Shown: piece by piece, positions 7,231-56,872 of the stretch
Layout: every line of letters begins with the position of its first letter
Numbering within the stretch: the first letter of the stretch is position 1
Source: a candidate division TM6 bacterium UASB124
Lineage (GTDB): Bacteria > Babelota > Babeliae > Babelales > RVW-14
DNA: 64,000 nt
Assembly: GCA_945897315.1 (NCBI GenBank)
Contig: CAMDFF010000001.1
Coordinates: 21,262-85,261 of the forward strand
Direction of reading: 5' to 3'
Notes under the pieces: generated by a model
Told to the model about the DNA's origin: nothing
Database searches by the model: none
What the model saw: only the letters and a program-made list of their open reading frames with translations
Program-made: the position numbers and the translations under genes

Positions 7231-7319
7231 TATGCCTAAAATCTGGATTTGCGATCTCTTTTGTAGTAAAGTGAAAGAAAATACAGCTTTTCACTATGCT
7301 TAGGAAAAAGAGGAAGCCG

Positions 7320-20346: not shown

Positions 20347-21201
20347 CTATTTTTCTGGCTCTGTTGTCGCAACCAGATTCAGCCATATTCCAAGAAAATC
20401 ATCAAAGGTCATCTGCTGTGCACGTAAGCAAAGAACCTCTTCAGGAATAGCCACATGCGCTTTATAGTGCGTTGATTTCAAATTATTTCTGATCATTTGC
20501 CGCGGCTTACCAAAGCAAAATTTAACAAACTTCCAAAAATCTTCTTCATCAGGAATCGCAACAGGCGCTTGCTTAGGTTTAAAATATAATAGCCTGGAGT
20601 GCACCTTTGGTGGAGGGCTAAACGCTCCCGGTTCAATTCCTTCAAGCAATTTAAACTCAAAATGGTGCTGCAAAAACACTGACGTTGTATTGTACGTTCG
20701 TCCGTACGAAGCAACGATTTTTTGCGCCACTTCCTCTTGGATCATCACGACGCCCTCAGTGAACAGATGCTTATTTTTCTGCAGCAAGAACATAATCGGA
20801 AAGGTAATTTGATAGGGAAGATTTGCTAGTAAAACCCACGGCATGTGCTCACGCAATGGCTCAAGATTAGCATCCAAAATATTTTCCAAAAAGATCGTCA
20901 GTCGTGGATCGGTAACCCCATCGCGCACAACCTCTGCCCATTCAGGGTCAATTTCAAAACACCAAAGATTCTTACAGGGTGTTTGTGCCAAGATTGAACG
21001 TGTTAAAAATCCATCACCACAGCCAATTTCCATAACTGATGTTTCTGGGGTTACGGTGACAGCCGCAATCATATTGTCGACGACTGACTGTTTCCGCAGA
21101 AAGTGCTGCCCTAGAGATTTCTTCTTGAACGGCAACGGCTTGCCCGTGTGCGGGTCTATGTGATTTTTTACTGGCTTAGGGGTATATATGTGGTATTTCA
21201 T
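20347..21201 (-). CDS. rsmA: 16S rRNA (adenine1518/1519-N6)-dimethyltransferase
   Basis: LGQHFL, SAM motif EIGCGDGFLT and ANLPYQIT. Confidence 0.9.
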   Translation of the reverse strand: MKYHIYTPKPVKNHIDPHTGKPLPFKKKSLGQHFLRKQSVVDNMIAAVTVTPETSVMEIGCGDGFLTRSILAQTPCKNLWCFEIDPEWAEVVRDGVTDPRLTIFLENILDANLEPLREHMPWVLLANLPYQITFPIMFLLQKNKHLFTEGVVMIQEEVAQKIVASYGRTYNTTSVFLQHHFEFKLLEGIEPGAFSPPPKVHSRLLYFKPKQAPVAIPDEEDFWKFVKFCFGKPRQMIRNNLKSTHYKAHVAIPEEVLCLRAQQMTFDDFLGIWLNLVATTEPEK

Positions 21202-21340
21202 TAAAACAACGCCTGGTAGAGGGTAGGGTGCCCCCGCTTTTTAGGAAGAGCGGGAAGTACACAGCTTGCCATTGACTCACTGTAAATTTAACTGTTATAA
21301 TAGGCAGTATAGCACAATCGTGCTGATCTTTGAATCTTTT

Positions 21341-21743
21341 GGGGGCGTAATGGTCTCGACGTTTTATGGTAAGCGAGGAGAGCATGCCAAGGTTGCAGAA
21401 GCCCTTGTAAATCAAGTCTGTAGAAACATAAATGCAAATCATATTGCACCTGCTTTTGGAGGTGTCTTCGGACACAACCAAGCAGTAGCTTGTGCATAGT
21501 ATCTTTCAATAGATAGTGTATAAGCTCTTGGGCAACAGCGTGTTTATCAGCTGTTGCACTCGTATAACTTGATAAAACGACTATGTGTAGATTTTTTTGT
21601 TCTGTAAGCATAGGCGTAACACTGAACCGGCTCAGACCTCAGGGTGCTCTTGTCCAAGGGTTTGAGTATAATCAAGAGATAAGCATGTAGCGCTTTTCGT
21701 GAATTGTTTAACGGACATGGGTTCGATTCCCATCGCCTCCACC
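21341..21743 (+). ncRNA. ssrA: tmRNA (SsrA)
   Basis: The 5' end GGGGGCGTAATGGTCTCGACG pairs with the 3' acceptor CGCCTCC-A-CCA, including a G3:U wobble (alanine identity). The 3' end is tRNA-like (GGACATGGGTTCGATTCCCAT-CGCCTCCACCA). An internal tag frame at 21434-21499 reads GCA AAT CAT ... GCA TAG = ANHIAPAFGGVFGHNQAVACA*. Confidence 0.9.
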
Positions 21744-21824
21744 AGTCTTCGCTCTGTGTGTTAATGCTTTTAGCTGTAACCACTCTATGAGCGACCCACC
21801 AAACCACCACTCCGAAACAAAAAG

Positions 21825-21865
21825 AAAAAAGCCCGCACGCACTATTTGTTGCACGCGGGATTTTT
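21825..21865 (-). terminator. Rho-independent terminator of the mechanosensitive-channel gene
   Basis: On the minus strand: cccgcgtgc, then a loop, then gcgtgcggg (9 bp including two G:U pairs), followed by tttttt. It starts 3 nt after the stop codon. Confidence 0.5.
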
Positions 21866-21867
21866 AG

Positions 21868-24800
21868 TTACTTATCAAATTTAATTTCTATTGCCTTAGT
21901 TGAAGCGCCGGCTTGTCCGGGCTGTTCAAAGACAATAATTCGTTCTGCACGCGCAAGCTTAATGCCATGCTCTTTAAACGCGCGTATTAACTCAGTGCGA
22001 ATGTTCGCTGCAATTTCCCATTGCTCTTTAACGCGCCGCGCACTAACAAACGCACGAATCAAAAACACAAATGCATTTTCTTCAAATTCCTCAAGCCGAC
22101 CGACCACTCCTGGTACTTTGAGCACCAGAGGATGCGCTTGCACAACGCTAAAAATCACACGCTTTACAACGTCTGGATCTACCGTTGGATCAATTCGTAC
22201 ATTCAACTCAAAACCGATAGCATAACGACCATGGCCCCAATTGATGATCCATTTGGAAACCAAGTCACGATTGGGAATGATAACCGAATGATTTCTTGAT
22301 GTAATAATCGTTGTTGAACGAGCAGCGATACGATGCACGGTCCCTTTGATGTTATCAATTTCAACGTAGTTGCCAATTTCCAGCGGCCGCTCAATAAGCA
22401 CAAAAATGCCAGACAGTAGGTCTGCGCCAATATCTTTGAGTGCAAAACCAAGCGCGATACCAAATGATGCACCAACGTACAGCATGAACTGCTGCAGATG
22501 AATATTTATCATTGATAGAATAATCGCAATAAAAATAATGGTGTAATGACAAATCCGCGAGATCGTATTCTGAATGCCCGGCTCTGAGCGCAAAATATCG
22601 AATAATTTGGTTAAAATAAATCGATGTGTAATCGATGAAACAAAGAATCCGGCTGCAATAAAAAGACCGACTACCAGGAATTGAACAACCCCAATTTTAT
22701 GGTCAACACTAATGGGCACCACCCATGTTTCAGAAAGAGCGTACCAGATATCTGTTGGCGTATAATCAAAGCCCCAAATACGCGAAACTAACGTGAACGT
22801 AATAAACAGCAAGACAATAAAAGAGAAGATAACAAAAAAACCATAATATGCTTTAGCATGCTCAAACTTATCAACAAAGTCGTCATCATCCTCTTTCATG
22901 AACATAAAGACAGCATAACGCCTAATCACATGGTGAATGGTGAATAAAAAGTAACCGAGCAGTAATGACCCCGGCACAGCAAATGCAAGAAACCAAGCCA
23001 TATTTGAGTACCCAACATAAGGATTGGATAAAATAAATAAGCTAATCGCAAAAAAGAAAACGGGATAATAATGCTTATCAATTTTCCGCTTTAATAAAAT
23101 CATAACGCTGTTGCGTGTTGGTATCAGACGTAAAATATCATCCTTGCTAAACAAAAATGTAACGATCAGCACAGTAACAAGAGAATATGCCGCAAGAATA
23201 AGAGTTGCAAATGCAGATATCCGTGTATCGGTATAGGAAATCAGCGCAAGCCGCAAAGGAACCAAAATTGCTGTTGCATAACAAAAAAAACTCACAAGAA
23301 CAATAAAACGCGCTTGAAATTTTTCCGCAAATAACAAATAGCTCAGCTTTTCATTTACATCGCGCAAAAAACCAATAAAACGCGCTGTAAGATAAATGAG
23401 CAAGGGGATTGACGCCAGATGAAAAATAGCAATTGAGTAATGGCTTGCTAATGGACGCAGCGTGCTAAAGATATATGAAAAATCGAATGCTATATGAAAG
23501 AAGATAAATAGCCATGCAAAGAATAAGCCACAATAAGCCAACGCAAAATCAAAGAAGGCCAACAAGAGATGGAAATATAGATATCGAGCATGCCCCTTAA
23601 GCCGCTCGGTAATGGCACTCAGGCGAGCGCGCATAATGCGTAAGCCTTTTTTTAAAAATAAAAAAAGCCCTATGAATAAACAGATAAAACAGAGAAGCAT
23701 GAAAAAATCGTACAGATCAAATGACCTCACTAATGCAAAAATCGATGATGGTCGAATGTGCGAGGGAGTCTCCCAGTACAGCTTCTTTAGAAATGCTTCC
23801 CCTTCAAGAATAGCAGCAATAAGAGCTTCATATGATATGGCTTTTGGCGATCGCTTCCAAATGCTATAGTTGCGTAAGCGATGATCAATTTCGTACAAAA
23901 TCAGATCATACTGATTGATAATTTTTTCTTGATTCATAATGAGATCGGCATTCACTGCTAAGTACGATTGCGTAAAATCAAGCTGCCACATGAGATAATT
24001 ATTGGTCTCTTGCATAATAGATAACAGGTCGCGCGCATCAGCCATGCGCAATCTGATATGGTCACCCTGACCATCAACTTGCAGATTTTTTTGGTAATTT
24101 TTAATCCGCTCAATAGCACGATTTACCTCAATAAGGTGCGAAATAGCCTGTGTGCGCCTATCTTTAAACCCTCGTAGCGTACTAAAAGCAAGATCACGCT
24201 TATTTGAAAAAGCAGCATATAGTTCATCTAGATTGTCTGTTTCAAGCTTCAAGCGATAGCGCATCTCTACCATGTTATATTGCAACTCGCGCTCCGTAGC
24301 TGCCATATCAGCAAGATCTTTCTTTGCATCTAGCAGGGCAAGCTCTTTTTCTATCGCTTGTAGAAGTGCCGTAAGGCGCCTGACTTGTGCCTTAATCAAA
24401 ACAACATCAAACGACTCTTTGTCAGCCCCTGCCTTACCTTTAAACGTCGCAAGCTTACCACGTAAAAATTCTAATTCGGTAGCAACTTTTTCTTTGTTTT
24501 GTTTTTTCGGCTCTCGTAATGCGTTAAGCTTTTCTTTTACTACCAGGGCATTTTGCGCTTCAGCCTTCCAATCAATACGCGCAACATCAACATCCCCTTT
24601 CTCAAGAACTAGGCGCTGCTCGATATGAGAAAGAAGCAGTTTTTGCTCTTGATAGCGTTGCTGCGCCAGCTCAATAATATCTTCCCAGAGTCGTATCTCT
24701 ACTTCAATTTTATTGATATGCAGCTTGACCGATTCAACTGACTCTTCAATAGCCAAAATTTCTTGTGCAACATTATCCGCCTCCTGTCGCAGCGCTCCAG

Positions 24801-25464
24801 GATTTTCATTTTTTTCATGATCAGCGTTGCGGTCTACCTGTACACTGATACGCTCACGCTCTTTATTCTTTACAATAAGCTGCTGGCTAAGCGATGAAAG
24901 CAATTCATTATGCGCAATACGCTGCTTTTTAAGATTATCTTTTTTGATCTTGTTTAATTCAACTTTTTCATGTTGTTCTGCCAAGCGAATATGTGCATCA
25001 CGGAACTCTTTCCATGAATAGGCGTCTTTTGGATTGCTGGAAGATTTTTCCAAATATTCTAACAATTCGCTATGAATTTTAACACGTTGTTCATGTGTCT
25101 CAACTAGCTCGCGCCATGCATCTTGCTGGTCAATTTGCTTTTGCTTGCGATCGTTGAGAACAGCAATTTTTTTATTGAGAAGCTCAGCTTTAAGATCTGC
25201 CGCAGTCGTTAAAAGCTGATGGGCCTCTTGTAGCTCAGTTGAAATATGACTTAAATTGCCAAGAATAGACTTTTGCGCTTCTTCTGTGCGCTTTTTAATA
25301 TCAGTAACGGTTTTTTCTAGCTCTTCTTTTTGCGATTTACGCAACTCAGCATTATTAATAAGCGCCAACCCAACAGCGGTCATTTTTTCTGTTGCAGACA
25401 GAGGCAACATCACAAGTCCTGTCGCGACAATCACCAGTAGATAGAGTGTTCGTAACAATTTCAA
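21868..25464 (-). CDS. Large mechanosensitive channel, MscK/KefA (MscS superfamily) type
   Basis: C-terminal MscS core (GADLLSGIFVLIERPLEIGNYVEIDNIKGTVHRIAARSTTIITSRNHSVIIPNRDL), about 11 TM helices, and a long N-terminal coiled-coil periplasmic region after a signal peptide. The ORF track extends to 25575 and would overlap the upstream gene by 100 nt. I prefer the TTG at 25464 (LKLLRTLYLLVIVATG...), which is preceded by AAGGGG. Confidence 0.85.
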   Translation of the reverse strand: MKLLRTLYLLVIVATGLVMLPLSATEKMTAVGLALINNAELRKSQKEELEKTVTDIKKRTEEAQKSILGNLSHISTELQEAHQLLTTAADLKAELLNKKIAVLNDRKQKQIDQQDAWRELVETHEQRVKIHSELLEYLEKSSSNPKDAYSWKEFRDAHIRLAEQHEKVELNKIKKDNLKKQRIAHNELLSSLSQQLIVKNKERERISVQVDRNADHEKNENPGALRQEADNVAQEILAIEESVESVKLHINKIEVEIRLWEDIIELAQQRYQEQKLLLSHIEQRLVLEKGDVDVARIDWKAEAQNALVVKEKLNALREPKKQNKEKVATELEFLRGKLATFKGKAGADKESFDVVLIKAQVRRLTALLQAIEKELALLDAKKDLADMAATERELQYNMVEMRYRLKLETDNLDELYAAFSNKRDLAFSTLRGFKDRRTQAISHLIEVNRAIERIKNYQKNLQVDGQGDHIRLRMADARDLLSIMQETNNYLMWQLDFTQSYLAVNADLIMNQEKIINQYDLILYEIDHRLRNYSIWKRSPKAISYEALIAAILEGEAFLKKLYWETPSHIRPSSIFALVRSFDLYDFFMLLCFICLFIGLFLFLKKGLRIMRARLSAITERLKGHARYLYFHLLLAFFDFALAYCGLFFAWLFIFFHIAFDFSYIFSTLRPLASHYSIAIFHLASIPLLIYLTARFIGFLRDVNEKLSYLLFAEKFQARFIVLVSFFCYATAILVPLRLALISYTDTRISAFATLILAAYSLVTVLIVTFLFSKDDILRLIPTRNSVMILLKRKIDKHYYPVFFFAISLFILSNPYVGYSNMAWFLAFAVPGSLLLGYFLFTIHHVIRRYAVFMFMKEDDDDFVDKFEHAKAYYGFFVIFSFIVLLFITFTLVSRIWGFDYTPTDIWYALSETWVVPISVDHKIGVVQFLVVGLFIAAGFFVSSITHRFILTKLFDILRSEPGIQNTISRICHYTIIFIAIILSMINIHLQQFMLYVGASFGIALGFALKDIGADLLSGIFVLIERPLEIGNYVEIDNIKGTVHRIAARSTTIITSRNHSVIIPNRDLVSKWIINWGHGRYAIGFELNVRIDPTVDPDVVKRVIFSVVQAHPLVLKVPGVVGRLEEFEENAFVFLIRAFVSARRVKEQWEIAANIRTELIRAFKEHGIKLARAERIIVFEQPGQAGASTKAIEIKFDK

Positions 25465-25474
25465 AGTAACCCCT

Positions 25475-26206
25475 TTATATGGTCTTATACACAAATGATA
25501 ACGTCTTAAAGCCGCTAATCCGTGGATGTGTGTTGAGGCATGCGAGAAGCCATGCGTGATACTGCACAAAGTCATCCTGTTGCAGCATAGCAGCGGAACA
25601 TGTGAGCAATTCTAGATTCTGATGGCTCGTAAAGTCAATAGTCATTGCAAGCAATCTATTTACGGTGTTAAGCGTATTTACAAAGCGCGCAGGAGGGTAA
25701 AACCCAAAAAGCATAAACAAGCACCCAATTAAACAGTACTGAACACGCGTTAAACCATGTGTCCACAGACCCAATGGGCCTGGATCATGTGATGATGCCA
25801 CAAAAAGCTTATCTGGCAAGCTGTTGCCATTATTGCCCTCTTGAGAAAATAGGCTAGGCAACCGATGCAACAGCTGCAAGCATTTTTCAAGAACCACATA
25901 GACCTCCCCTGCGGGCTGATGCATAGGGCAAAAAAAATAACTGATTTCAAGAAGATGATGAAACCAGCCTAAGTCATTATAGCTCAAACTTGGTTGCGCT
26001 AATAATTCAACTGATTGCACAATGAATGAGTTATGCTGATCATGCAGCACAACACTACGCACAAAATTCCCAAGACCCATACGTACACGCTGATGATGCT
26101 TAAAAACCATCAAGGGAATCTTGCCATACTCGTGCGTCAGCATACAAATTTTAGGGGAGCCACTGAGTGGCATTTTGACTATTACGCCATGAATAATTTC
26201 TTGCAT
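25475..26206 (-). CDS. Hypothetical protein, possibly a divergent RecO
   Basis: 243 aa, with size and layout resembling RecO (N-terminal OB-like HGVIVKMPLSGSPKICMLTHEYGKIPLMV, helical middle, C-terminal ...GFKTLSFV). Weak by-eye similarity only. Confidence 0.35.
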   Translation of the reverse strand: MQEIIHGVIVKMPLSGSPKICMLTHEYGKIPLMVFKHHQRVRMGLGNFVRSVVLHDQHNSFIVQSVELLAQPSLSYNDLGWFHHLLEISYFFCPMHQPAGEVYVVLEKCLQLLHRLPSLFSQEGNNGNSLPDKLFVASSHDPGPLGLWTHGLTRVQYCLIGCLFMLFGFYPPARFVNTLNTVNRLLAMTIDFTSHQNLELLTCSAAMLQQDDFVQYHAWLLACLNTHPRISGFKTLSFVYKTI

Positions 26207-26284
26207 TTCTCGCTTTCACCGTATGCTCTGAGTATATACTATAAAACGGGATATGCGCACAGGGATTATGATATTGGGGGAGAC

Positions 26285-27415
26285 ATGACATTCGGACTAA
26301 TACTATTTTTATACTGCACATTGTATAGCTGTTTCTTACAAGCATTCCACCTTGACAGCACTGGCACACAGTTTATTGCAAAACGCTTGGGGCACTATGC
26401 ACCACTTGAAGTGGGTAATTTTTTTGAAAAGAAAAAATTCTATCTCACCACAGAACAAATTATCACCGACCCCCTTGCTTTACAACAAGTAGCCAAAGAC
26501 ACTCTGCGCTATATCAAGCGCCACGAAGCAACACATATTCACACCGTCGACCCCGTTGGCTTTGCAGCAATTTTGTCGCTACAAAGCGTCAAAAACACGC
26601 TGCAATTTATTTGCCAAACTGTTGAGGAAGACAAGAAAACAGGTCGGCACAGACTTCTTCAACAACCATTTATCAATAAGCATTTTAGCTCTGTTGCATG
26701 GCGCGCTGATACAAGAGCAGCAACATACAGCAATATTACCTTGCCAGACGATAATCACATCAGACTAACAACCTATGCTGTTTTTAATATGCAGGGCAGC
26801 AGGCATAAAACAGAAAAATATAATTGCGGGCTATACGCCCTACATGATGACACACTAGCAAAACGCTTTACCAAACAACAAATTATTGCCGGTGCGCTCG
26901 AACACGTATCATATCTCAAAAAACGTACCCCGCTTGCCTGGGTAACGCAGCAGGCACTTGAAGATGCGCTGATGCATGGAACCATGCTAGTTGCCTTTCC
27001 TGACGATGGATCACGGTTGCTCAACGTGCATAAAAACAATGGCATTGCATACGACCGCAGCATTAAGGATCGTACCGAGCAACGACGCTACTGGTTTTTT
27101 AAAGATATTGGCACGAAGACTCATGAAGCTGCTAGCCGTATTGAAAAGATTAAAAATCGTAAAGACGTTATTTTTGCTGGAGACTTGCACAACATTGGCT
27201 TTGGCAAGCTCATTGCTCTGCGACATGAAAATCCACAAACGCGCCAACTAGAAATGCGCTTAGGCATTTTGGCTGACACAGGCAGTGCATTTTATAATAA
27301 TTTATATCAACTCGATTACTTCGCAGGGCTTGCCGAAGGGTATGATGACTTACGACACATCATTCGTCAGCGCCCAACTTTCACAAAAGCATGTATTTTG
27401 TATAAAAAGGGATAG
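26285..27415 (+). CDS. MltA-like lytic murein transglycosylase (3D-domain C-terminus)
   Basis: C-terminal LGILADTGSAFYNNLYQLDYFAG resembles the MltA/3D-domain motif (DTGgAI.g..r.D.f.G). Start set at the ATG at 26285 after GGGGGAG, because the ORF-track 5' extension (from 26033) overlaps the minus-strand gene. The N-terminus MTFGLILFLYCTLYSCFL is hydrophobic. Confidence 0.5.
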   Translation: MTFGLILFLYCTLYSCFLQAFHLDSTGTQFIAKRLGHYAPLEVGNFFEKKKFYLTTEQIITDPLALQQVAKDTLRYIKRHEATHIHTVDPVGFAAILSLQSVKNTLQFICQTVEEDKKTGRHRLLQQPFINKHFSSVAWRADTRAATYSNITLPDDNHIRLTTYAVFNMQGSRHKTEKYNCGLYALHDDTLAKRFTKQQIIAGALEHVSYLKKRTPLAWVTQQALEDALMHGTMLVAFPDDGSRLLNVHKNNGIAYDRSIKDRTEQRRYWFFKDIGTKTHEAASRIEKIKNRKDVIFAGDLHNIGFGKLIALRHENPQTRQLEMRLGILADTGSAFYNNLYQLDYFAGLAEGYDDLRHIIRQRPTFTKACILYKKG

Positions 27416-27470
27416 TTTCTGCATCGCTTAAATCCATGAATTACAACTAACAAAAATCGGAGTGTTTATC

Positions 27471-27905
27471 ATGAACAAAGCCAATATATTGTTTAGTTTT
27501 ACCCTCATGACCTGTCTTATGGTTTGCACGGCACACACAGCGACACTGCGCGCATACGCGGACTGGAAATGCACGAGATGTTTCACGATTCACAGTTGGG
27601 GACCATCACAATGTACCGAGTGCTCCAAGTATCGTCCTGAAATATGGGCCTGTACCGCATGTGGAAAGGCCATTAACCATCCGTGCAGACCAACGTGCCT
27701 CAATTGCAAGGCGCCAAGCCCATTCCTTGCTCCTTGGGCATGTGCGCTGTGCGAGACCGTAAATAATCCCTGCGCAGAAGAATGTGAATCGTGTACAGAA
27801 GCTAAGACCTGGAGCTGCTCTACACCATGCTGTCGTGGCAAAAATGCTTATTGCGCCATACAGTGCTTACGGTGCAAAATTCCGCGAAGCTTCGGTTGCA
27901 AATAA
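27471..27905 (+). CDS. Secreted protein with four tandem RanBP2-type (W-x-C-x2-C-x3-N-x6-C-x2-C) zinc-finger-like repeats
   Basis: Signal peptide MNKANILFSFTLMTCLMVCTAHTA. Repeats: WKCTRCFTIHSWGPSQCTEC, WACTACGKAINHPCRPTCLNC, WACALCETVNNPCAEECESC (exact consensus) and WSCSTPCCRGKNAYCAIQCLRC. ATG at 27471 preceded by GGAG. Confidence 0.65.
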   Translation: MNKANILFSFTLMTCLMVCTAHTATLRAYADWKCTRCFTIHSWGPSQCTECSKYRPEIWACTACGKAINHPCRPTCLNCKAPSPFLAPWACALCETVNNPCAEECESCTEAKTWSCSTPCCRGKNAYCAIQCLRCKIPRSFGCK

Positions 27906-27907
27906 AT

Positions 27908-27956
27908 TTCTGGAGGCTCTTTAGTAGTTGTAACGGCTACCAAAGAGCCTCCAGAA
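27908..27956. terminator. Perfect 15-bp-stem hairpin between convergent genes
   Basis: ttctggaggctcttt (27908-27922) pairs exactly with aaagagcctccagaa (27942-27956). It begins 3 nt after the stop of the zinc-finger gene. There is no clean U-tract. Confidence 0.5.
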
Positions 27957-28001
27957 AAAAGCTTCAAAAAACATCTCAATATACCGACCAGATCATCAGA
28001 T

Positions 28002-29198
28002 TTAGCCAAGAATACCTGAAATTATTGTTTTAATCTCAGACGCATTCTTCATGCCTGTCACCACAAGATTAATGAGCAGCGTAGCAATAACCACTTCTTT
28101 GATGTAATTAAATCCCCAAAAAACATATGCGGCGTTGGCTAGAGAAAGTACAATTAAGGCCGGATAACAAATAACTACTAGTGGCTCCATCACAGCCTCA
28201 ATGCCACTAAACCCAAGATTGGTCATAGCAAAATTCATAGCTACTGTAATCATCAAAGCGTGTATATATTTTATACGGGCGCCACACAACTCGCTAGCCA
28301 GATACTCCGCAAAAACTGTAGTTAGTGCTATCGCCGTTGAAAGACACGCAACGACGGTGGTAATATTTGCTAAAATACTTGCAGGCGCGCCAAGCACCTC
28401 AGCAGCAAGAGCGCTGAGCAATTGTCTTTTTTCTATAAACGCTATCGCTAGCCCATGCTGCGCAGCAACCACACTAAAGCCAATATATACCAAGCCAAGC
28501 AGTGAACCACCAATCACGCCAGCCTTAAGGCCATAGAGAGCAACAGCTGCTTGATCACCCTGCTCTTCTGGTTTCATACTTGCTCTAATCGAGCGAACAA
28601 TAAGAGCAGAAAAGAAAATTGTCGCTATCAAATCAAGCGTTAAATAGCCATCCGTAAAGCCTCTGGTAAAAGCTGTTCCGCTGTCCAAGACTGTTGTAAG
28701 TGGTGCAGCGGTAGCGAAGAGACCACATATAATAATAAGAAATAGGAGGGCTAATTTAATTGGACCAAAAACTTTTCCCATTAACTCAACGACCATGCTG
28801 CGCCGCATGGTAGCAAAAAAGATTAGCACAGCAGTAACCACGCTAAATATAAACAGAGAGATCGCCGGTACATGCCAATGGACCGCGCCGTGCGCCAAGG
28901 TAATACACCGCGGCGTCGCGCCTAATGGCCCAAGCAATAACATGCATATAAATGCTATGATCATCCCTGGCCAACGACCAGCCATTCCTAAAAATCTTTT
29001 GTAGTCGCCATTAAACAGTGCTGCTGAAATAAGGCCAATCAGAGGAACTAATACTCCTGTGACAATAAACCCTGCAACTGCAAACAACACCATGCTGCCC
29101 GCATCACGACCAAGACAAAGGGGATATACAACGCTACCTGCACCAAAGAGCATTGCAAAAATAGCCAGGCCCAACTGGACTAAGCGAAAAGGCTGCAT
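28002..29198 (-). CDS. brnQ: Branched-chain amino acid transport system II carrier (LIVCS family), copy B
   Basis: 398 aa, about 12 TM helices, N-terminal FAMLFGAGSVVYPLCLG motif typical of BrnQ. Near-identical length and sequence to the adjacent copy. Confidence 0.85.
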   Translation of the reverse strand: MQPFRLVQLGLAIFAMLFGAGSVVYPLCLGRDAGSMVLFAVAGFIVTGVLVPLIGLISAALFNGDYKRFLGMAGRWPGMIIAFICMLLLGPLGATPRCITLAHGAVHWHVPAISLFIFSVVTAVLIFFATMRRSMVVELMGKVFGPIKLALLFLIIICGLFATAAPLTTVLDSGTAFTRGFTDGYLTLDLIATIFFSALIVRSIRASMKPEEQGDQAAVALYGLKAGVIGGSLLGLVYIGFSVVAAQHGLAIAFIEKRQLLSALAAEVLGAPASILANITTVVACLSTAIALTTVFAEYLASELCGARIKYIHALMITVAMNFAMTNLGFSGIEAVMEPLVVICYPALIVLSLANAAYVFWGFNYIKEVVIATLLINLVVTGMKNASEIKTIISGILG

Positions 29199-29234: not shown

Positions 29235-30431
29235 TTAGCCAAGCAGTGCAGCAAGCATTGTTTTAATCTCAGGCGCATGCTTCATGCCAGTCACCACAAG
29301 ATTAATGAGCAGCGTGCCAATAACTACTTCTTTAATATAGTTAAAGCGCCAAAAAACATGTGCAGCATTTGCCAGAGAAAGAACGATCAGCGCAGGATAA
29401 CAAACAACTACTAATGGCTCCATCACATGAGCAAGACCACTAAAGCCTAAGTTTGTCATCGCCAGATTCATTACTACTGTTACAACAAGTGCATGAATAT
29501 ATTTAATGCGGCCACCAAATAATTCACTAGCCATATATTCCGCAAACACTGCAGTCAATGCTATCGCCGTTGAAAGACATGCGATCGTTGTAGTAATATT
29601 GGCCAAGATGCTAGCACGAGCACCAAGCACCATCTCTGCAAGCGCGCTCAGAAGCTCTGTTTTATCTACAAACTCAAGTGCTATTCCATGCTTAGCCGCA
29701 GCAAAACTAAATCCGACATAAACAAGTCCAAGTAGCGAACCACCAATCACCCCAGCCTTGAGACCATACCAAGCGATAGCCGCTTGATCATCACGCTCTT
29801 CTGGCTTCATACTTGTCCGGATAGAACGAATGATAAGCGCAGAGAAGAATATCGTACCGATCAAATCAAGCGTCAAATACCCATCTGCAAATCCACGTGC
29901 AAATGCGGTACTACCCGTCAATACAGTTGTCAATGGCGCCGCTGTTGCAAGCAACCCGAGAGTAATAATAATAAAAAGCAAAACTAATTTAATAGGGCCA
30001 AAGACCTTGCCCATAAGCTCAACAACCATGCTCCGACGAATAGTAGAAAAAAATATCAGAACCGCAGTGATCAAACTAAAAACAAACAGAGATATAGTGG
30101 GTAAATGCCAATGCACAGCACCATGAGCCAATGTAATACACCGTGGCGTGGCGCCTAACGGCCCCAGAAGCAACATACATATAAATGCAATGATCATACC
30201 TGGCCAACGACCAGCCATGCCTAAGAATTTTTTATAATCACCGTTAAACAGTGCGGCCGAGACAAGACCAATAAGCGGCACTACAACACCAGTAATGATA
30301 AAGCCAATAACAGCAAACATTACCATACTCCCGGCATCGCGGCCAAGACAGAGGGGGTAAACGACATTGCCCGCACCAAATAGCATTGCAAATATTGCAA
30401 GCCCTAATTGGATCAAACGAGATGTTTGCAT
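29235..30431 (-). CDS. brnQ: Branched-chain amino acid transport system II carrier (LIVCS family), copy A
   Basis: 398 aa, FAMLFGAGNVVYPLCLG. Colinear with and highly similar to 28002-29198. Confidence 0.85.
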   Translation of the reverse strand: MQTSRLIQLGLAIFAMLFGAGNVVYPLCLGRDAGSMVMFAVIGFIITGVVVPLIGLVSAALFNGDYKKFLGMAGRWPGMIIAFICMLLLGPLGATPRCITLAHGAVHWHLPTISLFVFSLITAVLIFFSTIRRSMVVELMGKVFGPIKLVLLFIIITLGLLATAAPLTTVLTGSTAFARGFADGYLTLDLIGTIFFSALIIRSIRTSMKPEERDDQAAIAWYGLKAGVIGGSLLGLVYVGFSFAAAKHGIALEFVDKTELLSALAEMVLGARASILANITTTIACLSTAIALTAVFAEYMASELFGGRIKYIHALVVTVVMNLAMTNLGFSGLAHVMEPLVVVCYPALIVLSLANAAHVFWRFNYIKEVVIGTLLINLVVTGMKHAPEIKTMLAALLG

Positions 30432-30733: not shown

Positions 30734-32377
<1,644 letters not shown>

Positions 32378-32689: not shown

Positions 32690-32949
32690 AAAAATCCTCC
32701 GAACAATGTATTTTATTTTATAGGTTTTGTGCGGTAGTCTGAAATCAGCCAGTCCTCACATTTTTGTCTACATTTTAAGTCTATTTTCAGTTTACAGCCT
32801 TCACGTAAAAATGCAACCGACTTCTGATAGCAACAGACTAAGATATTATCAACCACCGCACGCATAGTTTGAATGTCGACAAAAGACGATTTGGTCGTGT
32901 TTTACAACATATTTTACCCAGAAATCATTTACCCCTAGGACTTTTTTTA

Positions 32950-34113
32950 ATGATTAAAAACAAACTGATTTATATGCGAGCCGCCCTAGCAATATTCCTC
33001 TTGCCCGCCAGCAGCTCACTGTGCACCGCCACCGCCTCCGCAAAAGATAAAAACTCTGACAAAATAGCCAGCACCTGGAGAGAAACAAAGCAACGCCTCC
33101 CGTTATTTGTGCGATTCCCATCTCTTGCCGAAAAAATCGCCTATATGCCTCTTGGCCTCTTGCCAACACCACTAGACAATTGCGCTGCGCTAGCACAAAA
33201 GTTGCAAACTGAAACTCTCTTGATCAAGCGCGATGATCTTTCTGGTGAGCTTTTCGGGGGCAACAAAGTGCGAAAACTGGAATTTTTGCTGAGCGAAGCC
33301 TGCGCGCGCGGCGCTGAGCACGTAGTGACCTGGGGCACGCCAGGGTCGCCACACACCACGGCAACGGCAATTTATTGCCACAATTTAAAACTCCCCTGCA
33401 CGTGCATGTACCTACCCAGCCCAAAACTATCCGTAAATGAGCACAACGCGCAGCTCACGAAAGCACATCAGGCAATAGAAGAGACTTATCGCGGATTTGG
33501 CCACCGCGAACAAGCTCTCTACAAGAAGAACAAAGAGTTTCGCGAGCAAACTGGAAAATCTCTGTATTTTATTCCCGAGGGCGGCTCTGACGTGCTCGGT
33601 GCACTCGGCTTCGTCAATGCAGTGTGCGAACTTACGGAACAACTAAAAGCACAACAGGCGCCCTTTCCTGATTACATTTATTTGCTTTCTGGTAGCTCTG
33701 GCTCTGCTGCTGGTTTTCTTGCGGGCCTTGATTTGTTACACATCAAAACAACGCCTGTTATTGTTGCGCTTGCACCGGACAAATACCCACATCAACAGCA
33801 AGACAAAATAGAAAAGCTGTACGCTGAAATAATGGCATATGTGATGCACTTGGATCTAAGAATTCACACATGCAAAACACCGCAAAACACTGTTTTATAC
33901 AATCATGGCTTTTCTCGCGCAAGCGATAACCAGCTGCAAGCTACGGCAATCACAACACAGGACTTGTGTAAGAAAATCACTAGCTATTCTCTCGATCCTA
34001 TTTTCAGCACAAGACTCTGGACGGCTTTTTTGCTAGACTGCAATGCTGAATTATTACAGAATAAGCGCGTTCTTTTGTGGAATACAGGGTCATTGACCAC
34101 TATTAAAAATTAG
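32950..34113 (+). CDS. Signal-peptide-bearing PLP enzyme of the ACC deaminase / D-cysteine desulfhydrase family (paralog 1)
   Basis: Family-defining PLP-lysine motif FGGNKVRKLEFLLSEA, EGGSDVLGALGFV and SGSSGSAAGFLAGL. N-terminus MIKNKLIYMRAALAIFLLPASSSLCTATASA. The ORF track starts at an upstream TTG (32869). Confidence 0.7.
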   Translation: MIKNKLIYMRAALAIFLLPASSSLCTATASAKDKNSDKIASTWRETKQRLPLFVRFPSLAEKIAYMPLGLLPTPLDNCAALAQKLQTETLLIKRDDLSGELFGGNKVRKLEFLLSEACARGAEHVVTWGTPGSPHTTATAIYCHNLKLPCTCMYLPSPKLSVNEHNAQLTKAHQAIEETYRGFGHREQALYKKNKEFREQTGKSLYFIPEGGSDVLGALGFVNAVCELTEQLKAQQAPFPDYIYLLSGSSGSAAGFLAGLDLLHIKTTPVIVALAPDKYPHQQQDKIEKLYAEIMAYVMHLDLRIHTCKTPQNTVLYNHGFSRASDNQLQATAITTQDLCKKITSYSLDPIFSTRLWTAFLLDCNAELLQNKRVLLWNTGSLTTIKN

Positions 34114-34123
34114 GGGATTTAAT

Positions 34124-35287
34124 ATGAAATTATTTCGTTTTTTATTATTGCTCACGCTTGTAAGCACTGTGCACTTGTGCGACGCCACATCATTGTTTCG
34201 CGCATATCCAGCGCTCAAAGAAACTGTTCCCCATGTCTCACTTTGTTCCCCTTCAACCCCGGTAAGAAAGCTCTCGCTCTTCGCATCTTGGCCAGAGGCC
34301 CCAGAAATTTATGTCAAAGACGATAACTGGAGCACGAGCACTTTTGCAGGCAACAAACCTCGCAAACTTGAATTTTTACTCGCTGATGCAAAAGCAAAAG
34401 GATGCGCACACATTGTGACTTCTGGGTCAACTGGTTCAAACTTTGGTTGTGCCACTGCCGTTTTTGCAAAGAAGCTAGGGTTTGCATCGTGCACATGCAT
34501 TTACTCACCACAGATCAATACTAAATATTTACAACGCAATGCATTATGGGCAACGCTCGCAGGAGCTCAATTTGTATTTTGCAAGGATCGTGACGAGCGA
34601 CAAGAGCAGTGCGAAAAAGCCCTTACTTGTGCATCAAGCCGACGTACAAAAACATATTATATTCCTAGTGGCGGATCCAATGCTCTTGGGTCGTTAGGAT
34701 TTGTAAATGCAGCGTTTGAACTCAAAGCACAAATTGACGCAGGCACGCTTCCAGCCCCTGATGAAATATTTCTTACCTTTGGTTCTGGTGGCAGCGTATC
34801 TGGCTTGCTCCTTGGCCTCAAGGCAGCAGGATTGCCGTGTCGCGTGATCACGACATGTGTTGTTAGCGACCCAGACAAAACGGCCTATGATGACATCAAA
34901 AAACTGTTTGACCAAACCAACGATTTATTACAAGACAGCGACCCTTCATTCCCTCGTTTTGCATTAACCAGAGAAGACGTAACCGTTGACCACGACCATT
35001 ATTACGGGGAATACGCACAAATGAACGAGCAAGAATCTCGCGCAATTAGTTACTTACACGCATTAGACGGCATTAAGACCGATGGCACCTACGCAGGAAA
35101 AACACTAGTCACCCTTTTTCATTGGATTCCACGGCTTGCAGGTAAAAAAATCCTCTTTTGGAATACGTTTTGCAGTGGCAACCCAATGGAACAATTTTAT
35201 GATAAATACACCACACTACTAGCACCTGAGTGGCACCCATATTTTGATGGTACCATCCCACTACAAACGCTCGATCAAGGTCTATAA
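34124..35287 (+). CDS. Signal-peptide-bearing PLP enzyme of the ACC deaminase / D-cysteine desulfhydrase family (paralog 2)
   Basis: FAGNKPRKLEFLLADA, SGGSNALGSLGFVNAA and FGSGGSVSGLLLGL. N-terminus MKLFRFLLLLTLVSTVHLCDA. Confidence 0.7.
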   Translation: MKLFRFLLLLTLVSTVHLCDATSLFRAYPALKETVPHVSLCSPSTPVRKLSLFASWPEAPEIYVKDDNWSTSTFAGNKPRKLEFLLADAKAKGCAHIVTSGSTGSNFGCATAVFAKKLGFASCTCIYSPQINTKYLQRNALWATLAGAQFVFCKDRDERQEQCEKALTCASSRRTKTYYIPSGGSNALGSLGFVNAAFELKAQIDAGTLPAPDEIFLTFGSGGSVSGLLLGLKAAGLPCRVITTCVVSDPDKTAYDDIKKLFDQTNDLLQDSDPSFPRFALTREDVTVDHDHYYGEYAQMNEQESRAISYLHALDGIKTDGTYAGKTLVTLFHWIPRLAGKKILFWNTFCSGNPMEQFYDKYTTLLAPEWHPYFDGTIPLQTLDQGL

Positions 35288-42882: not shown

Positions 42883-43971
42883 TTATTCATCTGTCCGTTC
42901 ATGGTCATAGTCTCTCTCGTCTTCCTCTGCGTCATCAAGCGTGATGGTCTGTTCAGGTCTAGCAAGGTCTTGAAGTTGAATCTCAAGCCCAACCAGCTTT
43001 GACGCGAGGTTAATATTTTGGCCCATCTTACCAATCGCATAAGAGCGTTGATCTGGCGCAAGCCACACTGTAACCTTGCCACCATCCATAACCTCAACGC
43101 GGTCAATTTCTGCAGGCTTAAGGCTATAGCGTACCAATTTTTCCATGGAATCAGTGGCTTGAATAAGATCAATCTTTTCCTGGCCAAGCTCACGTAAGAT
43201 AGGTTTAATACGTGCGCCGCCTACCCCAACACAGGTACCAACAGGATCAATTTCTTTTCTATTCGATGCAACAATTATTTTAGTTTTATAGCCAGGAATA
43301 CGTACGACTGTTTGAATTTCCACAAGGCCTTCAAAAACCTCTGGGATTTCTATTTCCAGGAGACGTTGAACGAAGTCACCTGATACGCGGTCAAGAACAA
43401 GCTGATAGTCACCACGGGCAACTTGATACACTTCTTTAAGCAGGGCTCGAACGGGGTGCCCTATGCGTACGACTTCTTGAGGAATAACATTCTCAAAAGG
43501 CAGTATTGCAAGCACTTCGCCAACGCTAACAGCGTAGCCAGCACGTTCGCGCTTATGCACCATGCCAGTGACAATGGTGTCTTCCTTGTCTTTGTATTCT
43601 TCGTAAATGGCAAGCTGCTCAAGGTCACGAATTTTACTAGCAATCATCTGTTTTGCAGTCAAAATTTCGATACGACCAACCGGCTCTTCAAAAGGCACCT
43701 GAAGGATGACGCCTAGCGCAGCAGTTTGATCAACTGTTTTTGCCCTGCGCAGTGTGATCTCAAAGTCCTCATCGGTCACTACGGCTACAACTTCTTTGTC
43801 TGAAGCAACGTCCAGATTTCCAGTTTTTTTATTGTAGGTAACATAAAAAGTGACCCCGGGGTATTTTTTGCTATAAGCTGCCGATATGCCTTCGCATACA
43901 ATCGCAACAACTTTTTCACGATCAAGACCACGCTCTTCTACAAGACTATCGATGACGTCAGTAAGATTCAC
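42883..43971 (-). CDS. nusA: Transcription termination/antitermination factor NusA
   Basis: N-terminal domain, S1 domain (GMVHKRERAGYAVSVG) and KH domains (IDPVGTCVGVGGARIKPI; AIGKMGQNINLASKL). Lies 24 nt upstream of infB. Confidence 0.95.
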   Translation of the reverse strand: MNLTDVIDSLVEERGLDREKVVAIVCEGISAAYSKKYPGVTFYVTYNKKTGNLDVASDKEVVAVVTDEDFEITLRRAKTVDQTAALGVILQVPFEEPVGRIEILTAKQMIASKIRDLEQLAIYEEYKDKEDTIVTGMVHKRERAGYAVSVGEVLAILPFENVIPQEVVRIGHPVRALLKEVYQVARGDYQLVLDRVSGDFVQRLLEIEIPEVFEGLVEIQTVVRIPGYKTKIIVASNRKEIDPVGTCVGVGGARIKPILRELGQEKIDLIQATDSMEKLVRYSLKPAEIDRVEVMDGGKVTVWLAPDQRSYAIGKMGQNINLASKLVGLEIQLQDLARPEQTITLDDAEEDERDYDHERTDE

Positions 43972-44172
43972 TGTATTTTAACCTTTGTCGCTAGACGGCT
44001 TTTTTACGAAAGCCACATGAATATAGAAATGTTTCTTAAGTATCAAATTTTTGAATAACCATCAGTCTACTGCTTTTCCCAAAAAAGTGAAGCATTCCTC
44101 CAGAGTTGCCATACATCTATCATTGACTATCAGGCAATAGTCTCTTCCTGTGAAAAAGTTATCCACAACGCC

Positions 44173-44217
44173 TATTATTATTACTCTATAATATTATATT
44201 AATTATAATACTAATAA
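44173..44217. other. AT-rich tract (candidate DNA unwinding element) bracketed by inverted DnaA boxes
   Basis: tattattattactctataatattatattaattataatactaataa contains only 3 C and no G. It begins with a TAT TAT TAT TAC trinucleotide run, 5 nt (acgcc) after the box at 44159-44167. Confidence 0.55.
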
Positions 44218-44295
44218 GGGGCGCGTTTTTTGTGGATAACTTTGTTTTTTTTCGCTCTATCTATCGATCCAATCGGCCTAAGCAGGACAAAAAAA

Positions 44296-44340
44296 CTTGT
44301 GGATAACTTGTGGATAACTTGTTGATAACTTGTGGATAAC
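44296..44340. repeat. Four tandem 11-bp repeats, each containing a DnaA box (TGTGGATAA orientation)
   Basis: cttgtggataa cttgtggataa cttgttgataa cttgtggataa c, with an exact 11-bp period. Confidence 0.9.
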
Positions 44341-44436
44341 TTTTCACTAGCCAGTGAAACACTGATCCAGTCGGCTATTTGAAGTAAAAAATGCAGGATA
44401 GTTAGACCTAATAGGTTTTTACAATATTATGATAAA

Positions 44437-44481
44437 AGTTATTAACAAGTTATCAACAAGTTATCCACAAGTTATCCACAA
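44437..44481. repeat. Four tandem 11-bp repeats, each containing a DnaA box (TTATCCACA orientation); inverted copy of 44296-44340
   Basis: agttattaaca agttatcaaca agttatccaca agttatccaca a. Its reverse complement differs from the first array at only two bases, in the outermost box. Confidence 0.9.
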
Positions 44482-44574
44482 TTTCTATGTGCATTAAGCG
44501 CCTATTTAATTGCACAACTGGCAAAAATTGACGTTTTTGCCACAGAAAGTAAATTTTTATGCGGAGAAATAGTA

Positions 44575-45699
44575 ATGGGAAAAATATTTTTAGCGCTGTT
44601 AATACATTGTAACATCGTAGCGTTAACCTCTGCGCCAGTATTTTTGAGGGTTAAGGACCCTGTTTTAAGTGTGTGGATTGCTCCCCATGAGCTTCAGGGA
44701 CCCTTTGAGTACCCGTCTTTTCGCAATCCACGCAAACCTGGCGCTGTGTCGCTCAAAACACATCTTACGCAGTTATTATACGGTGAATGTGTGATTTTTT
44801 TAGGGGGTGGGGATGGTGCGAGTGGTATGCTTCACATTAGTATCCCTTCGCAGTTGTACTGTAATCAGGTGACAAAAGCATGGGGCAGCACAGAGGGGTA
44901 TGCTCATGAGCGGCACTTTGCGATTTGTCGCGAGCAAGCGCTCGTCACCATGGTTGTGCAAGCGGTAACGGCACGCGTGCACGCTGAGCCATCAGAGCAA
45001 GGGGCTCTTCTCATATCTTTGCCGCTGGGGGCTGTCGTACAACATGCTACCCATGAAATCATTAATGGGTATGTAAAAATTACGCTGCTGGATGGTAATA
45101 GTGGTTTTATGCGCTGTTGTGATCTGCAGGTTATATCAGAGCATGTTGGCGACATAGCAATCTTGCGTAACGCACTCTGTGAAAACGCAAAAAAGCTGAT
45201 AGGTATGCCTTACTGCTGGGGAGGCCGCAGCCCCTTTTTTGGTGAAATTGGTGCTCGTTCTCAGAGTGATTATGCAATCCCAACAAGCGTTGACTGTTCC
45301 GGCGTTGTGAGCTTATTGATGCACAGTATTGGCCTTTTTGTGCCAAGAAATAGCACAGGGCAATATGCCGTTGCTACTGTGGTAGAGCCAGCAGCAATGC
45401 AGCCTGGTGACATTTTTTTTCTCCAATCAGAGCTGGCACACGTTTCAAATCATATGTTGATATACCTTGGGGATGGCTTAGTATTTGAGGCGCGAGGCTC
45501 AGATGGGTCTGCTTCAAGCGTTCGTGTATCCCCTATTGAAAAACGTTTTGGGATGCGTCTCGAGGCGCTTCGCAATAATGAATATATTGACAACACACAC
45601 AAAGCGCACCGGCTATTGTGTGGTAGTTTTTTTTCTAGTCAAGAAACAGTCCAGCATCGGCGCAATTCTTTTCTTCTTCATCTTGGACACGCTAACTAA
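44575..45699 (+). CDS. NlpC/P60 (C40) cell-wall peptidase with an N-terminal SH3-like region, paralog 1
   Basis: Signal peptide MGKIFLALLIHCNIVALTSA. Catalytic context PYCWGGRSPF...VDCSGVVSLLMHSIGL, with HMLIYLGDG as the His motif. Confidence 0.8.
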   Translation: MGKIFLALLIHCNIVALTSAPVFLRVKDPVLSVWIAPHELQGPFEYPSFRNPRKPGAVSLKTHLTQLLYGECVIFLGGGDGASGMLHISIPSQLYCNQVTKAWGSTEGYAHERHFAICREQALVTMVVQAVTARVHAEPSEQGALLISLPLGAVVQHATHEIINGYVKITLLDGNSGFMRCCDLQVISEHVGDIAILRNALCENAKKLIGMPYCWGGRSPFFGEIGARSQSDYAIPTSVDCSGVVSLLMHSIGLFVPRNSTGQYAVATVVEPAAMQPGDIFFLQSELAHVSNHMLIYLGDGLVFEARGSDGSASSVRVSPIEKRFGMRLEALRNNEYIDNTHKAHRLLCGSFFSSQETVQHRRNSFLLHLGHAN

Positions 45700-56306: not shown

Positions 56307-56319
56307 GTTCCGGCCTTTA

Positions 56320-56871
56320 TCATTCTAAACTTGATTTGTAGCATTTTGTTGCCATGGTTACCGAAACTGCAATTTTTTTACTGGTGCCAGTTTTGATTTG
56401 TAGCTCTTTTAGGTAGACAATTTCTTCTTTATTGAGGGCATCAAGAATCTTGACCAATTTGTTCGACGTAAGATCTTTAAAGCGTGCTGTTAAAATAATC
56501 TCATCAAATATATCGCTAACGTGTTCAGCCGGGCGTGCAGCCCACCCTGTTTCTGCTGTAATGTTTTGATCACGGCAAAATTGTTCAAAAAATGCTTGGA
56601 TCGAGAATCCTCTTTTCTGTTCTAATAGGTTCTTTAGGCGCTGTTCATCTTTTGCTAGGCGCCGATTGCTATCAATAATATGACAGCTTTTAACTGCTAG
56701 CTTATTTAATATCTGCAGCTGAGAAATGAGATCATGTTTGCTGCTGTGAATGTAGTATAAAAGCATACTAGCAACTAGTATGATGCCGGCAAAAAAGGCA
56801 CATACGTGTAATCTAAAATTATGACGATCGAGCGCTTCGATATACCCAACAATTCTATTTAATGCTTCCAT
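56320..56871 (-). CDS. Bitopic inner-membrane protein, PilO/GspM-like
   Basis: 183 aa with a single N-terminal TM helix (HVCAFFAGIILVASMLLYYI), a coiled-coil-like segment and a small C-terminal domain. The gene sits between the PilMN/GspL-like gene (1-nt gap) and secretin B. The call rests on architecture and context. Confidence 0.45.
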   Translation of the reverse strand: MEALNRIVGYIEALDRHNFRLHVCAFFAGIILVASMLLYYIHSSKHDLISQLQILNKLAVKSCHIIDSNRRLAKDEQRLKNLLEQKRGFSIQAFFEQFCRDQNITAETGWAARPAEHVSDIFDEIILTARFKDLTSNKLVKILDALNKEEIVYLKELQIKTGTSKKIAVSVTMATKCYKSSLE

Positions 56872-56872
56872 G

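Follow-up and report, generated by a model that had tools for sequence, protein, structure and literature searches.

What is a zinc-finger module of eukaryotes doing behind the export signal of a bacterium? The question is raised by an open reading frame (ORF) at positions 27471–27905 (+) of a 64-kb stretch of contig CAMDFF010000001.1, the whole of which is referred to here as the window. RanBP2-type fingers are compact eukaryotic modules that bind ubiquitin, Ran and RNA. The ORF is real: as read from the sequence, it begins with an ATG at 27471 and encodes 144 amino acids (aa) plus a stop. Its product, the finger protein, carries four tandem units similar to fingers of the RanBP2/NZF family, placed behind an N-terminus with the anatomy of a Sec signal peptide, and it is encoded in the genome of a member of the Dependentiae (TM6). 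The proposal favoured here is that of a Sec-exported, horizontally acquired four-finger array that functions as a host-directed binding module, and its chances are put at about even. An earlier note on this DNA had described a 144-aa ORF with four tandem repeats, which was confirmed by direct reading and by a pattern scan.

Anatomy and family membership of the finger protein

The four tandem units follow the pattern W-x-C-x2-4-C-x3-4-[N/H]-x6-C-x2-C, and their limits and sequences are listed in Table 1. The published RanBP2 consensus is W-x-C-x2-4-C-x3-N-x6-C-x2-C (PMC6384913). All four repeats hold four cysteines in the C-x2-4-C and C-x2-C spacing. A tryptophan lies two residues ahead of the first cysteine in each (W32, W59, W89 and W114) and forms an invariant column of the repeat alignment. 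The spacing to the asparagine is exact in fingers 3 and 4, is x4 in finger 2, and in finger 1 the asparagine is replaced by histidine. Finger 4 fits the published consensus when C121 is taken as the second ligand (C-STPC-C-RGK-N). The earlier note had described finger 3 as an exact match and the other three as deviating; this stands for fingers 1 to 3, but finger 4 is also exact if C121 is a ligand. The tail that follows finger 4, KIPRSF, resembles the “MPRHF” of TAB2. When the six frames of the window were scanned with a relaxed form of the pattern, these four units and a single unrelated match at 46194 (-) were found. With only one other match in the whole window, four units within approximately 104 residues are far beyond chance.

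A further cysteine is located three residues after the asparagine (Asn+3) in fingers 2, 3 and 4. The corresponding segment of finger 1, SWGPSQ, has none, and the claim that every repeat carries an extra cysteine therefore has to be narrowed to three of the four. In total, there are 21 cysteines in the 114 aa after the AYA site: the 16 canonical residues, C72, C101, C128, one of C120/C121, and C143. The fingers share a pairwise identity of only 23–30%, and a repeat search at the locus found no DNA-level repeats between them. They were thus not recently duplicated in place.

The N-terminus was judged by a hand rule for signal peptides, namely a positive n-region, an h-region of 7–16 residues and small residues at positions -3 and -1. 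The n-region, MNK, holds one basic residue and is followed by an uncharged h-region of 16 residues (I6–A21). Two sites of the signal peptidase I type are present, between A and H in CTAH and between A and D in AYAD. This anatomy fits a cleaved Sec signal better than a membrane anchor. Lipoprotein export and Tat export were both rejected, as the protein has neither a lipobox nor a twin arginine (RR).

The family assignment is carried by several independent comparisons of sequence. An exhaustive phmmer search of 1.84 billion cluster representatives, a library that spans public genomes and metagenomes, returned the finger protein itself and 11 other proteins (E 1e-7 to 5e-4). The named matches belong to Leishmania, Euglena longa, protist transcriptomes of the MMETSP collection, Monocercomonoides exilis and Sphaeroforma arctica. 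When ten of the matches were scanned against Pfam, nine passed the gathering threshold of PF00641 (Zn_ribbon_RanBP), which is set at 27 bits, with scores of 70–233 bits. No bacterial zinc-ribbon protein in this search was closer than the eukaryotic RanBP2 fingers.

An alignment made from the four repeats only was also used as a profile against all PDB sequences. The leading matches were the NZF fingers of TAB2 (E 2.4e-6), Npl4 (6.5e-5) and TAB3 (3.8e-4), and Nup153 (0.0065), followed by MDM2, HOIL-1L, TRABID, FUS, RanBP2 and ZRANB2. RanBP2-family fingers account for 28 of the 34 matches at E<=1. Finger 3 compared with the TAB3 NZF gave an E value of 0.012. When the mature part was shuffled 40 times with the cysteines held fixed, the scores against the same proteins did not exceed 4.8 bits, as opposed to 36–48 bits for the real sequence. 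Since shuffles that preserve the cysteines lose the score, the similarity signal comes from the tryptophan, the asparagine, the N-x-P turn and the tails, and not from cysteine spacing. A home-made hidden Markov model of 77 canonical fingers, taken from the phmmer matches, scored finger 3 at 24.9 bits, finger 2 at 14.5, finger 1 at 13.1 (first knuckle only) and finger 4 at 2.6. Judged from their sequences, the repeats belong to the RanBP2/NZF family, with fingers 3 and 2 as good members and fingers 1 and 4 as divergent ones. A generic bacterial double zinc ribbon (DZR PF12773, DZR_2, zinc_ribbon) was rejected, with no Pfam match even at E<=10. A weak match to the rubredoxin-like RCKP model of NCBIfam reached 14 bits, against a cutoff of 45.

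Three points of the earlier note are borne out by these results. The repeats are of the RanBP2/NZF type, as indicated by phmmer, the Pfam scan of its matches, the self-profile and the cysteine-keeping shuffles. The closest homologues, which the note had left as a question, are eukaryotic. The n-, h- and c-region anatomy and the signal peptidase I-like sites agree, by the hand rule, with the Sec signal peptide that it had called.

Structure prediction was performed with AlphaFold2 (AF2), guided by an alignment of eight rows that consisted of the finger protein and collinear finger stretches of phmmer matches. In the resulting model, residues 31–110 form short beta-hairpin units with a predicted local distance difference test score (pLDDT) of 83–91, and finger 4 is low. 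Foldseek placed these units on PDB fingers of RanBP2, Nup153, TRABID, TAB2, MDM2 and ZRANB2, at 0.5–0.7 Å over 25–28 residues. The match probabilities are 0.95–1.0, and the modest E values (0.15–1) result from the small size of the domain. Among the predicted viral structures of BFVD, the best matches were to Edafosvirus (4e-6) and Fadolivirus (8e-6), followed by Hyperionvirus, Tupanvirus and Yasminevirus (to 9e-3).

Source organism, locus and origin

The genome of the window is Gram-negative, as it contains lpxK, msbA, two secretins of the GspD/PilQ type and pilM. Its IF-2 shares 81% identity with a protein named as Candidatus Dependentiae, and nearly all the more distant named matches come from TM6/Candidatus Babeliales, which identifies the source organism as a member of the Dependentiae (TM6). 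This phylum has a long history of parasitising eukaryotic microbes (PMC6561590). In the cultured member Chromulinavorax destructans, 44% of the coding sequences have signal peptides; ORFans and ankyrin-repeat proteins are over-represented in its predicted secretome, and 78% of the ankyrin-repeat proteins have a signal peptide (PMC6561590). Going by this secretome, a Sec signal joined to a eukaryote-type module in an ORFan is the usual style of the phylum, and it is only the module that is unusual. The finger protein matches the secreted eukaryote-like design of the Dependentiae in its genome, its Sec-like signal and its eukaryote-type domain, secretion being predicted. The two secretins, of 794 and 916 aa, are encoded in a cluster at 53922–63544 (-) of the window, together with a long PilM-like protein of 557 aa. 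The cluster may specify a type II secretion or type IV pilus system, and such an apparatus could take Sec-exported proteins through the outer membrane.

Two relatives were compared at the locus. The first, L002, is the uncultured bacterium LaPlata_bin-3921, with 95% aa identity to the window in GroEL and 85% in brnQ; it was the one relative found by a brnQ search of genome contigs. It is collinear with the window through groES-groEL-brnQ up to the 3′ end of brnQ, and then diverges. The second, L003, is Ga0194129_10007179, which is collinear with window positions 21085–27413 and includes ksgA, the transfer-messenger RNA (tmRNA), a gene for an MscS-like protein (81% aa identity), p243 and p376. 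Its homology ends at the stop codon of p376, and the last 250 bp of its contig hold no ORF and nothing resembling the finger ORF. Sequence like the finger ORF is absent from both relatives. As the shared gene order stops on either side, the segment between p376 and brnQ is specific to the source genome.

The junction itself differs in all three genomes. In L002, it holds two paralogous proteins of 328 and 441 aa with signal-peptide-like N-termini (L002:11260–13706 (-)), the longer of which has IQ calmodulin-binding motifs (PF00612, 33 bits). Across brnQ in the same genome, an ankyrin-repeat protein is encoded (L002:9167–9742 (+)), and its N-terminus likewise resembles a signal peptide. Judging by these sequences, the brnQ junction seems to be a hot spot for exported proteins of eukaryote-like character.

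Base composition sets the finger ORF apart from its surroundings. When it was compared with 227 segments of the same size taken from 30 genes of the 64-kb stretch, its GC content at third codon positions (0.50) ranked within the highest 3.5%, and the log-likelihood of its synonymous codons was below that of 99% of them. Codon usage is typical in p376, p201 and the MscS-like gene. There are no flanking direct or inverted repeats around the finger ORF that would hint at a mobile element. The codon usage, the genome-specific segment and the lack of recent duplication together favour the view that the fingers had already diverged when the array was acquired from outside. Going by the modelled viral structures, giant viruses of protists are possible donors.

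The gene is preceded by a Shine–Dalgarno-like sequence, and an alternative GTG start at 27462 would give a protein of 147 aa. The finger ORF lies on the same strand as p376 with a gap of 56 bp, which suggests that the two are possibly co-transcribed. In a promoter scan upstream of the ORF, promoter-like matches were no commoner than in shuffled sequence. A strong hairpin begins two bases past the stop codon, formed by an inverted repeat with 21-nt arms that are 95% complementary. It is a probable terminator or 3′-end stabiliser. A canonical U-tract is lacking on the + strand, and a simple terminator scan did not list the hairpin. The coding score of the ORF is below the 5th percentile, which is partly an artefact of its 16% cysteine content. 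An identical protein is recorded on a 200-kb NCBI/ENA contig and in a Logan assembly; the Logan copy is 100% identical and uninformative.

Table 1. Features of the finger ORF and its segment in the 64-kb window
Feature	Position	Strand	Remarks
Genome-specific segment with ORF and hairpin	27414..28001	.	between p376 and brnQ; ~590 bp
Shine–Dalgarno-like GGAG	27459..27462	+	8 nt before ATG of finger ORF; read from sequence
ORF: signal peptide and four RanBP2-type fingers	27471..27905	+	144 aa plus stop
Sec-type signal peptide, residues 1-30 (or cleavage after A21)	27471..27560	+	heuristic
Finger 1, W32-C51, WKCTRCFTIHSWGPSQCTEC	27564..27623	+	His in place of Asn; no fifth Cys
Finger 2, W59-C79, WACTACGKAINHPCRPTCLNC	27645..27707	+	one-residue insertion before Asn; extra C72; TAB2 NZF-like “NHP”
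Finger 3, W89-C108, WACALCETVNNPCAEECESC	27735..27794	+	exact consensus; extra C101
Finger 4, W114-C135, WSCSTPCCRGKNAYCAIQCLRC	27810..27875	+	C-x4-C variant; extra C120 or C121, and C128
Strong hairpin, convergent finger ORF/brnQ gap	27907..27957	.	dG -35 kcal/mol, z -8.5 vs shuffles

The genes on either side of the segment have features of their own. The branched-chain amino-acid transporter gene brnQ is present as a tandem duplicate at 28002–29198 and 29235–30431 (-), and the single brnQ of L002 is nearer to the second copy (85% vs 78% aa identity). The p376 locus is a 460-aa ORF at 26033–27415 (+), with a probable start at M85 (26285; MTFGLILFLYCTLYSCFLQA...) that gives 376 aa and a signal-peptide-like beginning. 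Its C-terminal motif ILADTGSAF...QLDYFAG recalls lytic transglycosylases of the MltA/3D-domain type, and it has no Pfam or PDB match. A 243-aa ORF, p243, at 25475–26206 (-) overlaps the upstream part of the 460-aa ORF on the opposite strand. Both are conserved in L003 through the same DNA, and one of the two calls is thus probably spurious in the overlap.

Further afield, the tmRNA at 21341–21744 (+) scores 145.6 bits with Rfam and has an unusual predicted tag, ANHIAPAFGGVFGHNQAVACA, which ends in ACA and not in the common LAA. The MscS-family channel at 21868–25575 (-) is 1235 aa long, with a very long N-terminal extension of coiled-coil and multi-pass character and 81% aa identity in L003. 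GroEL, at 30734–32362 (-), ends in a cysteine instead of the usual GGM repeats, and its L002 counterpart ends in GHQHGMGGMC. Two adjacent enzymes of the PALP family, dependent on pyridoxal phosphate, are encoded at 32869–35287 (+) of the window and at L002:4450–6772 (-). Those of L002 have signal-peptide-like N-termini, which is unusual for the family. Two paralogous ATPase genes of the AAA_14 and DUF4143 type lie at 7296–8447 (+) and 47365–48546 (-). The cumulative GC skew has its minimum near 44 kb (approximately 43000–45000) and rises after it, and the gene orientation switches from the - strand, up to 43971, to the + strand, from 44575. This switch may mark a replication origin or terminus.

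Ligand signatures and competing explanations

Three ligands are known for this type of finger, and each can be looked for by its defining residues. The definition of an NZF domain requires Thr-Phe/Tyr directly behind the second cysteine, together with a hydrophobic residue within the second CxxC (PMC11372445). After the second cysteine, fingers 1 to 4 carry F-T, G-K, E-T and R-G, so that the ubiquitin dipeptide, T-F in TAB2, is absent from all four. The inner pairs of the second C-x-x-C are TE, LN, ES and LR, with leucine at the first x in fingers 2 and 4. Putative RNA-binding RanBP2 fingers have been picked by an aromatic residue after the conserved asparagine, at “position 17” (PMC6384913). 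The finger protein has S42, H70, N99 and A126 after its Asn/His, and the aromatic is absent. In the PDB, the Nup153 and RanBP2 fingers crystallised with Ran-GDP all carry an [L/C/Y]-V dipeptide (CLVQN, CLVRN, CCVSN and CYVRN). Partridge and Schwartz, in 2009, reportedly described this dipeptide as contacting Ran. The corresponding positions of the finger protein read CFTIH, CGKAIN, CETVN and CRGKN, and [L/C/Y]-V is absent. The earlier note had suggested ubiquitin (NZF) or RNA binding, which is not upheld, as the defining residues are missing from all four fingers. With all three known signatures missing, the array must be taken to bind a non-canonical ligand or to be purely structural.

Under the favoured proposal, the ORF would be a genuine lineage-specific gene of the Dependentiae, and its product of approximately 12 kDa would form four zinc-ribbon fingers of the Cys4 type with short linkers in between. 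Most likely, the array would have come by horizontal transfer, either from a protist host or from a giant virus with the same host, and would then have been put behind a bacterial signal peptide, as Dependentiae do with ankyrin and other eukaryote-type modules. Following export, it could act as a multivalent module that mimics or competes with the RanBP2-type fingers of the host. Its ligand would be none of the I44 patch of ubiquitin, GGU RNA and Ran-GDP, each taken in its canonical mode of binding. An improbable elaboration gives the surplus cysteines a part in this scheme. The captured array would have become a Sec-delivered effector in which the fifth cysteines, C120/C121 and C143 make up an inter-finger zinc site or redox switch. 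The protein would pass through the periplasm in an oxidised state. In the reducing cytosol of the host, it would load zinc and become a rigid clamp of four fingers that binds a host target in a new mode.

A number of results weigh against the favoured proposal. Exported bacterial proteins do not usually contain Cys4 zinc sites, and the 21 cysteines could form disulfides rather than bind zinc. PF00641, which the earlier note had put forward as a check, is the sole Pfam family that matches the whole protein, and its score of 17.8 bits (E 0.0019) is below the threshold. Finger 2 scanned alone reached 21.6 bits (E 1.2e-4), and fingers 1, 3 and 4 scanned singly gave no Pfam match. From the single sequence, AF2 returned an all-helical model with a pLDDT of 47, which was discarded. 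The guided model shows compatibility and is not independent proof, because the rows of its alignment are RanBP2 fingers. No homologue of the same architecture was found in 5.8 billion clusters (word-indexed), JGI metagenome contigs, IMG/VR or the 1.84 billion phmmer representatives. There was also no close donor sequence, the best identity being 31–45% over short stretches. The low coding score and atypical codon usage also fit a young or non-functional ORF, and no finger carries a known signature for ubiquitin, RNA or Ran in its sequence. Taken as a whole, the earlier reading is partly borne out. It keeps its finger family and its Sec-like signal, and the eukaryotic kin and a source phylum whose cultured members parasitise protists agree with it; it loses the Pfam threshold, the ligand functions and the cysteine in all repeats.

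The surplus of cysteines leads to a different explanation, namely a disulfide-rich protein of the envelope or periplasm that has kept a RanBP2-like scaffold and serves the bacterium itself. Its 21 cysteines would be oxidised within or between fingers, and it might be cross-linked into the envelope or serve to buffer metal or redox state in the periplasm. A signal peptide does lead to an oxidising compartment, five cysteines are present beyond the 16 required for four zinc sites (three of them at Asn+3 in fingers 2–4), and no known ligand signature is present. The signal-peptide-like start and the MltA/3D-like C-terminal motif of p376 upstream may point to an envelope context. However, the hallmarks of the zinc fold other than cysteine (the tryptophan, the asparagine, N-x-P and the P-R-x-F tail) are kept and carry the similarity signal, and an odd number of cysteines leaves one unpaired. 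The gene is missing from the relatives, so it is no core part of the envelope, and Dependentiae routinely put Sec signals on host-directed proteins. This explanation is considered unlikely, though less so than the other alternatives. Retention of the cytoplasmic setting in which Cys4 zinc sites are normally found would require that the N-terminal hydrophobic segment stays in place as an anchor and leaves the fingers on the cytoplasmic side. The product would then be a membrane-anchored zinc-ribbon protein that acts on bacterial nucleic acid or protein in the manner of ordinary bacterial zinc ribbons. The charges could allow for it, as R27, K33 and R36 follow the hydrophobic segment (net +2) and +1 precedes it. 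Against this, the h-region is only 16 residues long with AXA-type sites behind it, which is typical of cleaved signals, and no bacterial zinc-ribbon family of Pfam (e.g., DZR) matches even at E<=10. The nearest relatives are eukaryotic RanBP2 fingers, although the library searched spans public genomes and metagenomes. Such an anchored protein is very improbable.

It has also to be asked whether the ORF functions at all. It could be a recent or decaying fragment of a multi-finger gene from a eukaryote or giant virus, stranded at a hypervariable junction and preceded by a hydrophobic stretch that is fortuitous. Such a fragment would be expected to look as the ORF does in several respects: it is an orphan in searches of 5.8 and 1.84 billion sequences and is absent from both relatives, its synonymous codons are more atypical than those of 99% of gene windows, and its coding score is low. 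In addition, fingers 1 and 4 are degenerate and there is no promoter-like site above chance. Yet all 16 ligand cysteines and all four tryptophans are intact despite the low identity between fingers and the absence of DNA-level repeats. The clean ATG with a well-spaced GGAG, the well-formed n-, h- and c-regions and the strong hairpin after the stop also speak for a gene, and part of the low coding score is explained by the cysteine content. Decay is regarded as quite unlikely.

If the favoured proposal of an exported, host-directed array is true, the finger protein (~12 kDa) is a candidate effector for the study of how the Dependentiae, which are poorly understood, manipulate their protist hosts. 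The passage of Cys4 zinc ribbons through an oxidising export route could also be tested with it. As all known ligand signatures are missing, the array may reveal a fourth binding mode of the fold. Its value is limited for now, as it is one orphan ORF from a metagenome-assembled genome with a sub-threshold Pfam score.

Comparison with known systems

The nearest subgroup overall is that of the NZF fingers of TAB2, TAB3 and Npl4. The likeness consists of the W-x-C-x2-C-x3-N-x6-C-x2-C framework, the N-x-P turn (NHP, NNP) and a P-R-x-F-like tail. The finger protein differs in that it is without Thr-Phe/Tyr, carries a signal peptide and extra cysteines, and is bacterial. Nup153 and RanBP2/Nup358 resemble it in having a tandem array of the same type of finger, and phmmer aligns residues 27–113 of the finger protein to a two-finger chain of Nup153 (3gj8_B). 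In contrast, these are cytoplasmic or nuclear-pore proteins with longer linkers, and [L/C/Y]-V is present in them.

The closest sequences are those of protist proteins with multiple RanBP2 fingers, including the Monocercomonoides “cabeza”, some of which have equally tight spacing (e.g., P0007 and P0012). The protist proteins are 180–730 aa long, and many are of the RNA-binding N-V-N-F-x-R-R type or have N-termini that resemble organelle-targeting sequences. None has a Sec signal or a fifth cysteine, and identity is 31–45% over short stretches. Giant-virus proteins with multiple fingers provide the best matches in BFVD, and such viruses, like the cultured Dependentiae, infect protists. These proteins are larger and multidomain, and are without a signal peptide; a scan of IMG/VR yielded no relative of the finger protein at the level of sequence.

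Literature searches on bacterial RanBP2 proteins found no precedent for such a finger in a secreted bacterial protein, nor any report that joins a RanBP2/NZF finger array to both a bacterial export signal and a conserved fifth cysteine. The sequence collections searched held no second bacterial example of a signal joined to a RanBP2 finger array. RanBP2 fingers and the Sec-signal effectors of Dependentiae are each known; it is the joining of such fingers to a bacterial export signal that appears to be new. In design, the finger protein is like the secreted repeat proteins of the Dependentiae, such as the 98 ankyrin proteins of C. destructans, which come from the same phylum, join a Sec signal to a eukaryote-type module and are often ORFans. 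The difference lies in the module, which here is a RanBP2-type zinc finger. If it is indeed exported, the array would add a module class to the eukaryote-like effectors.

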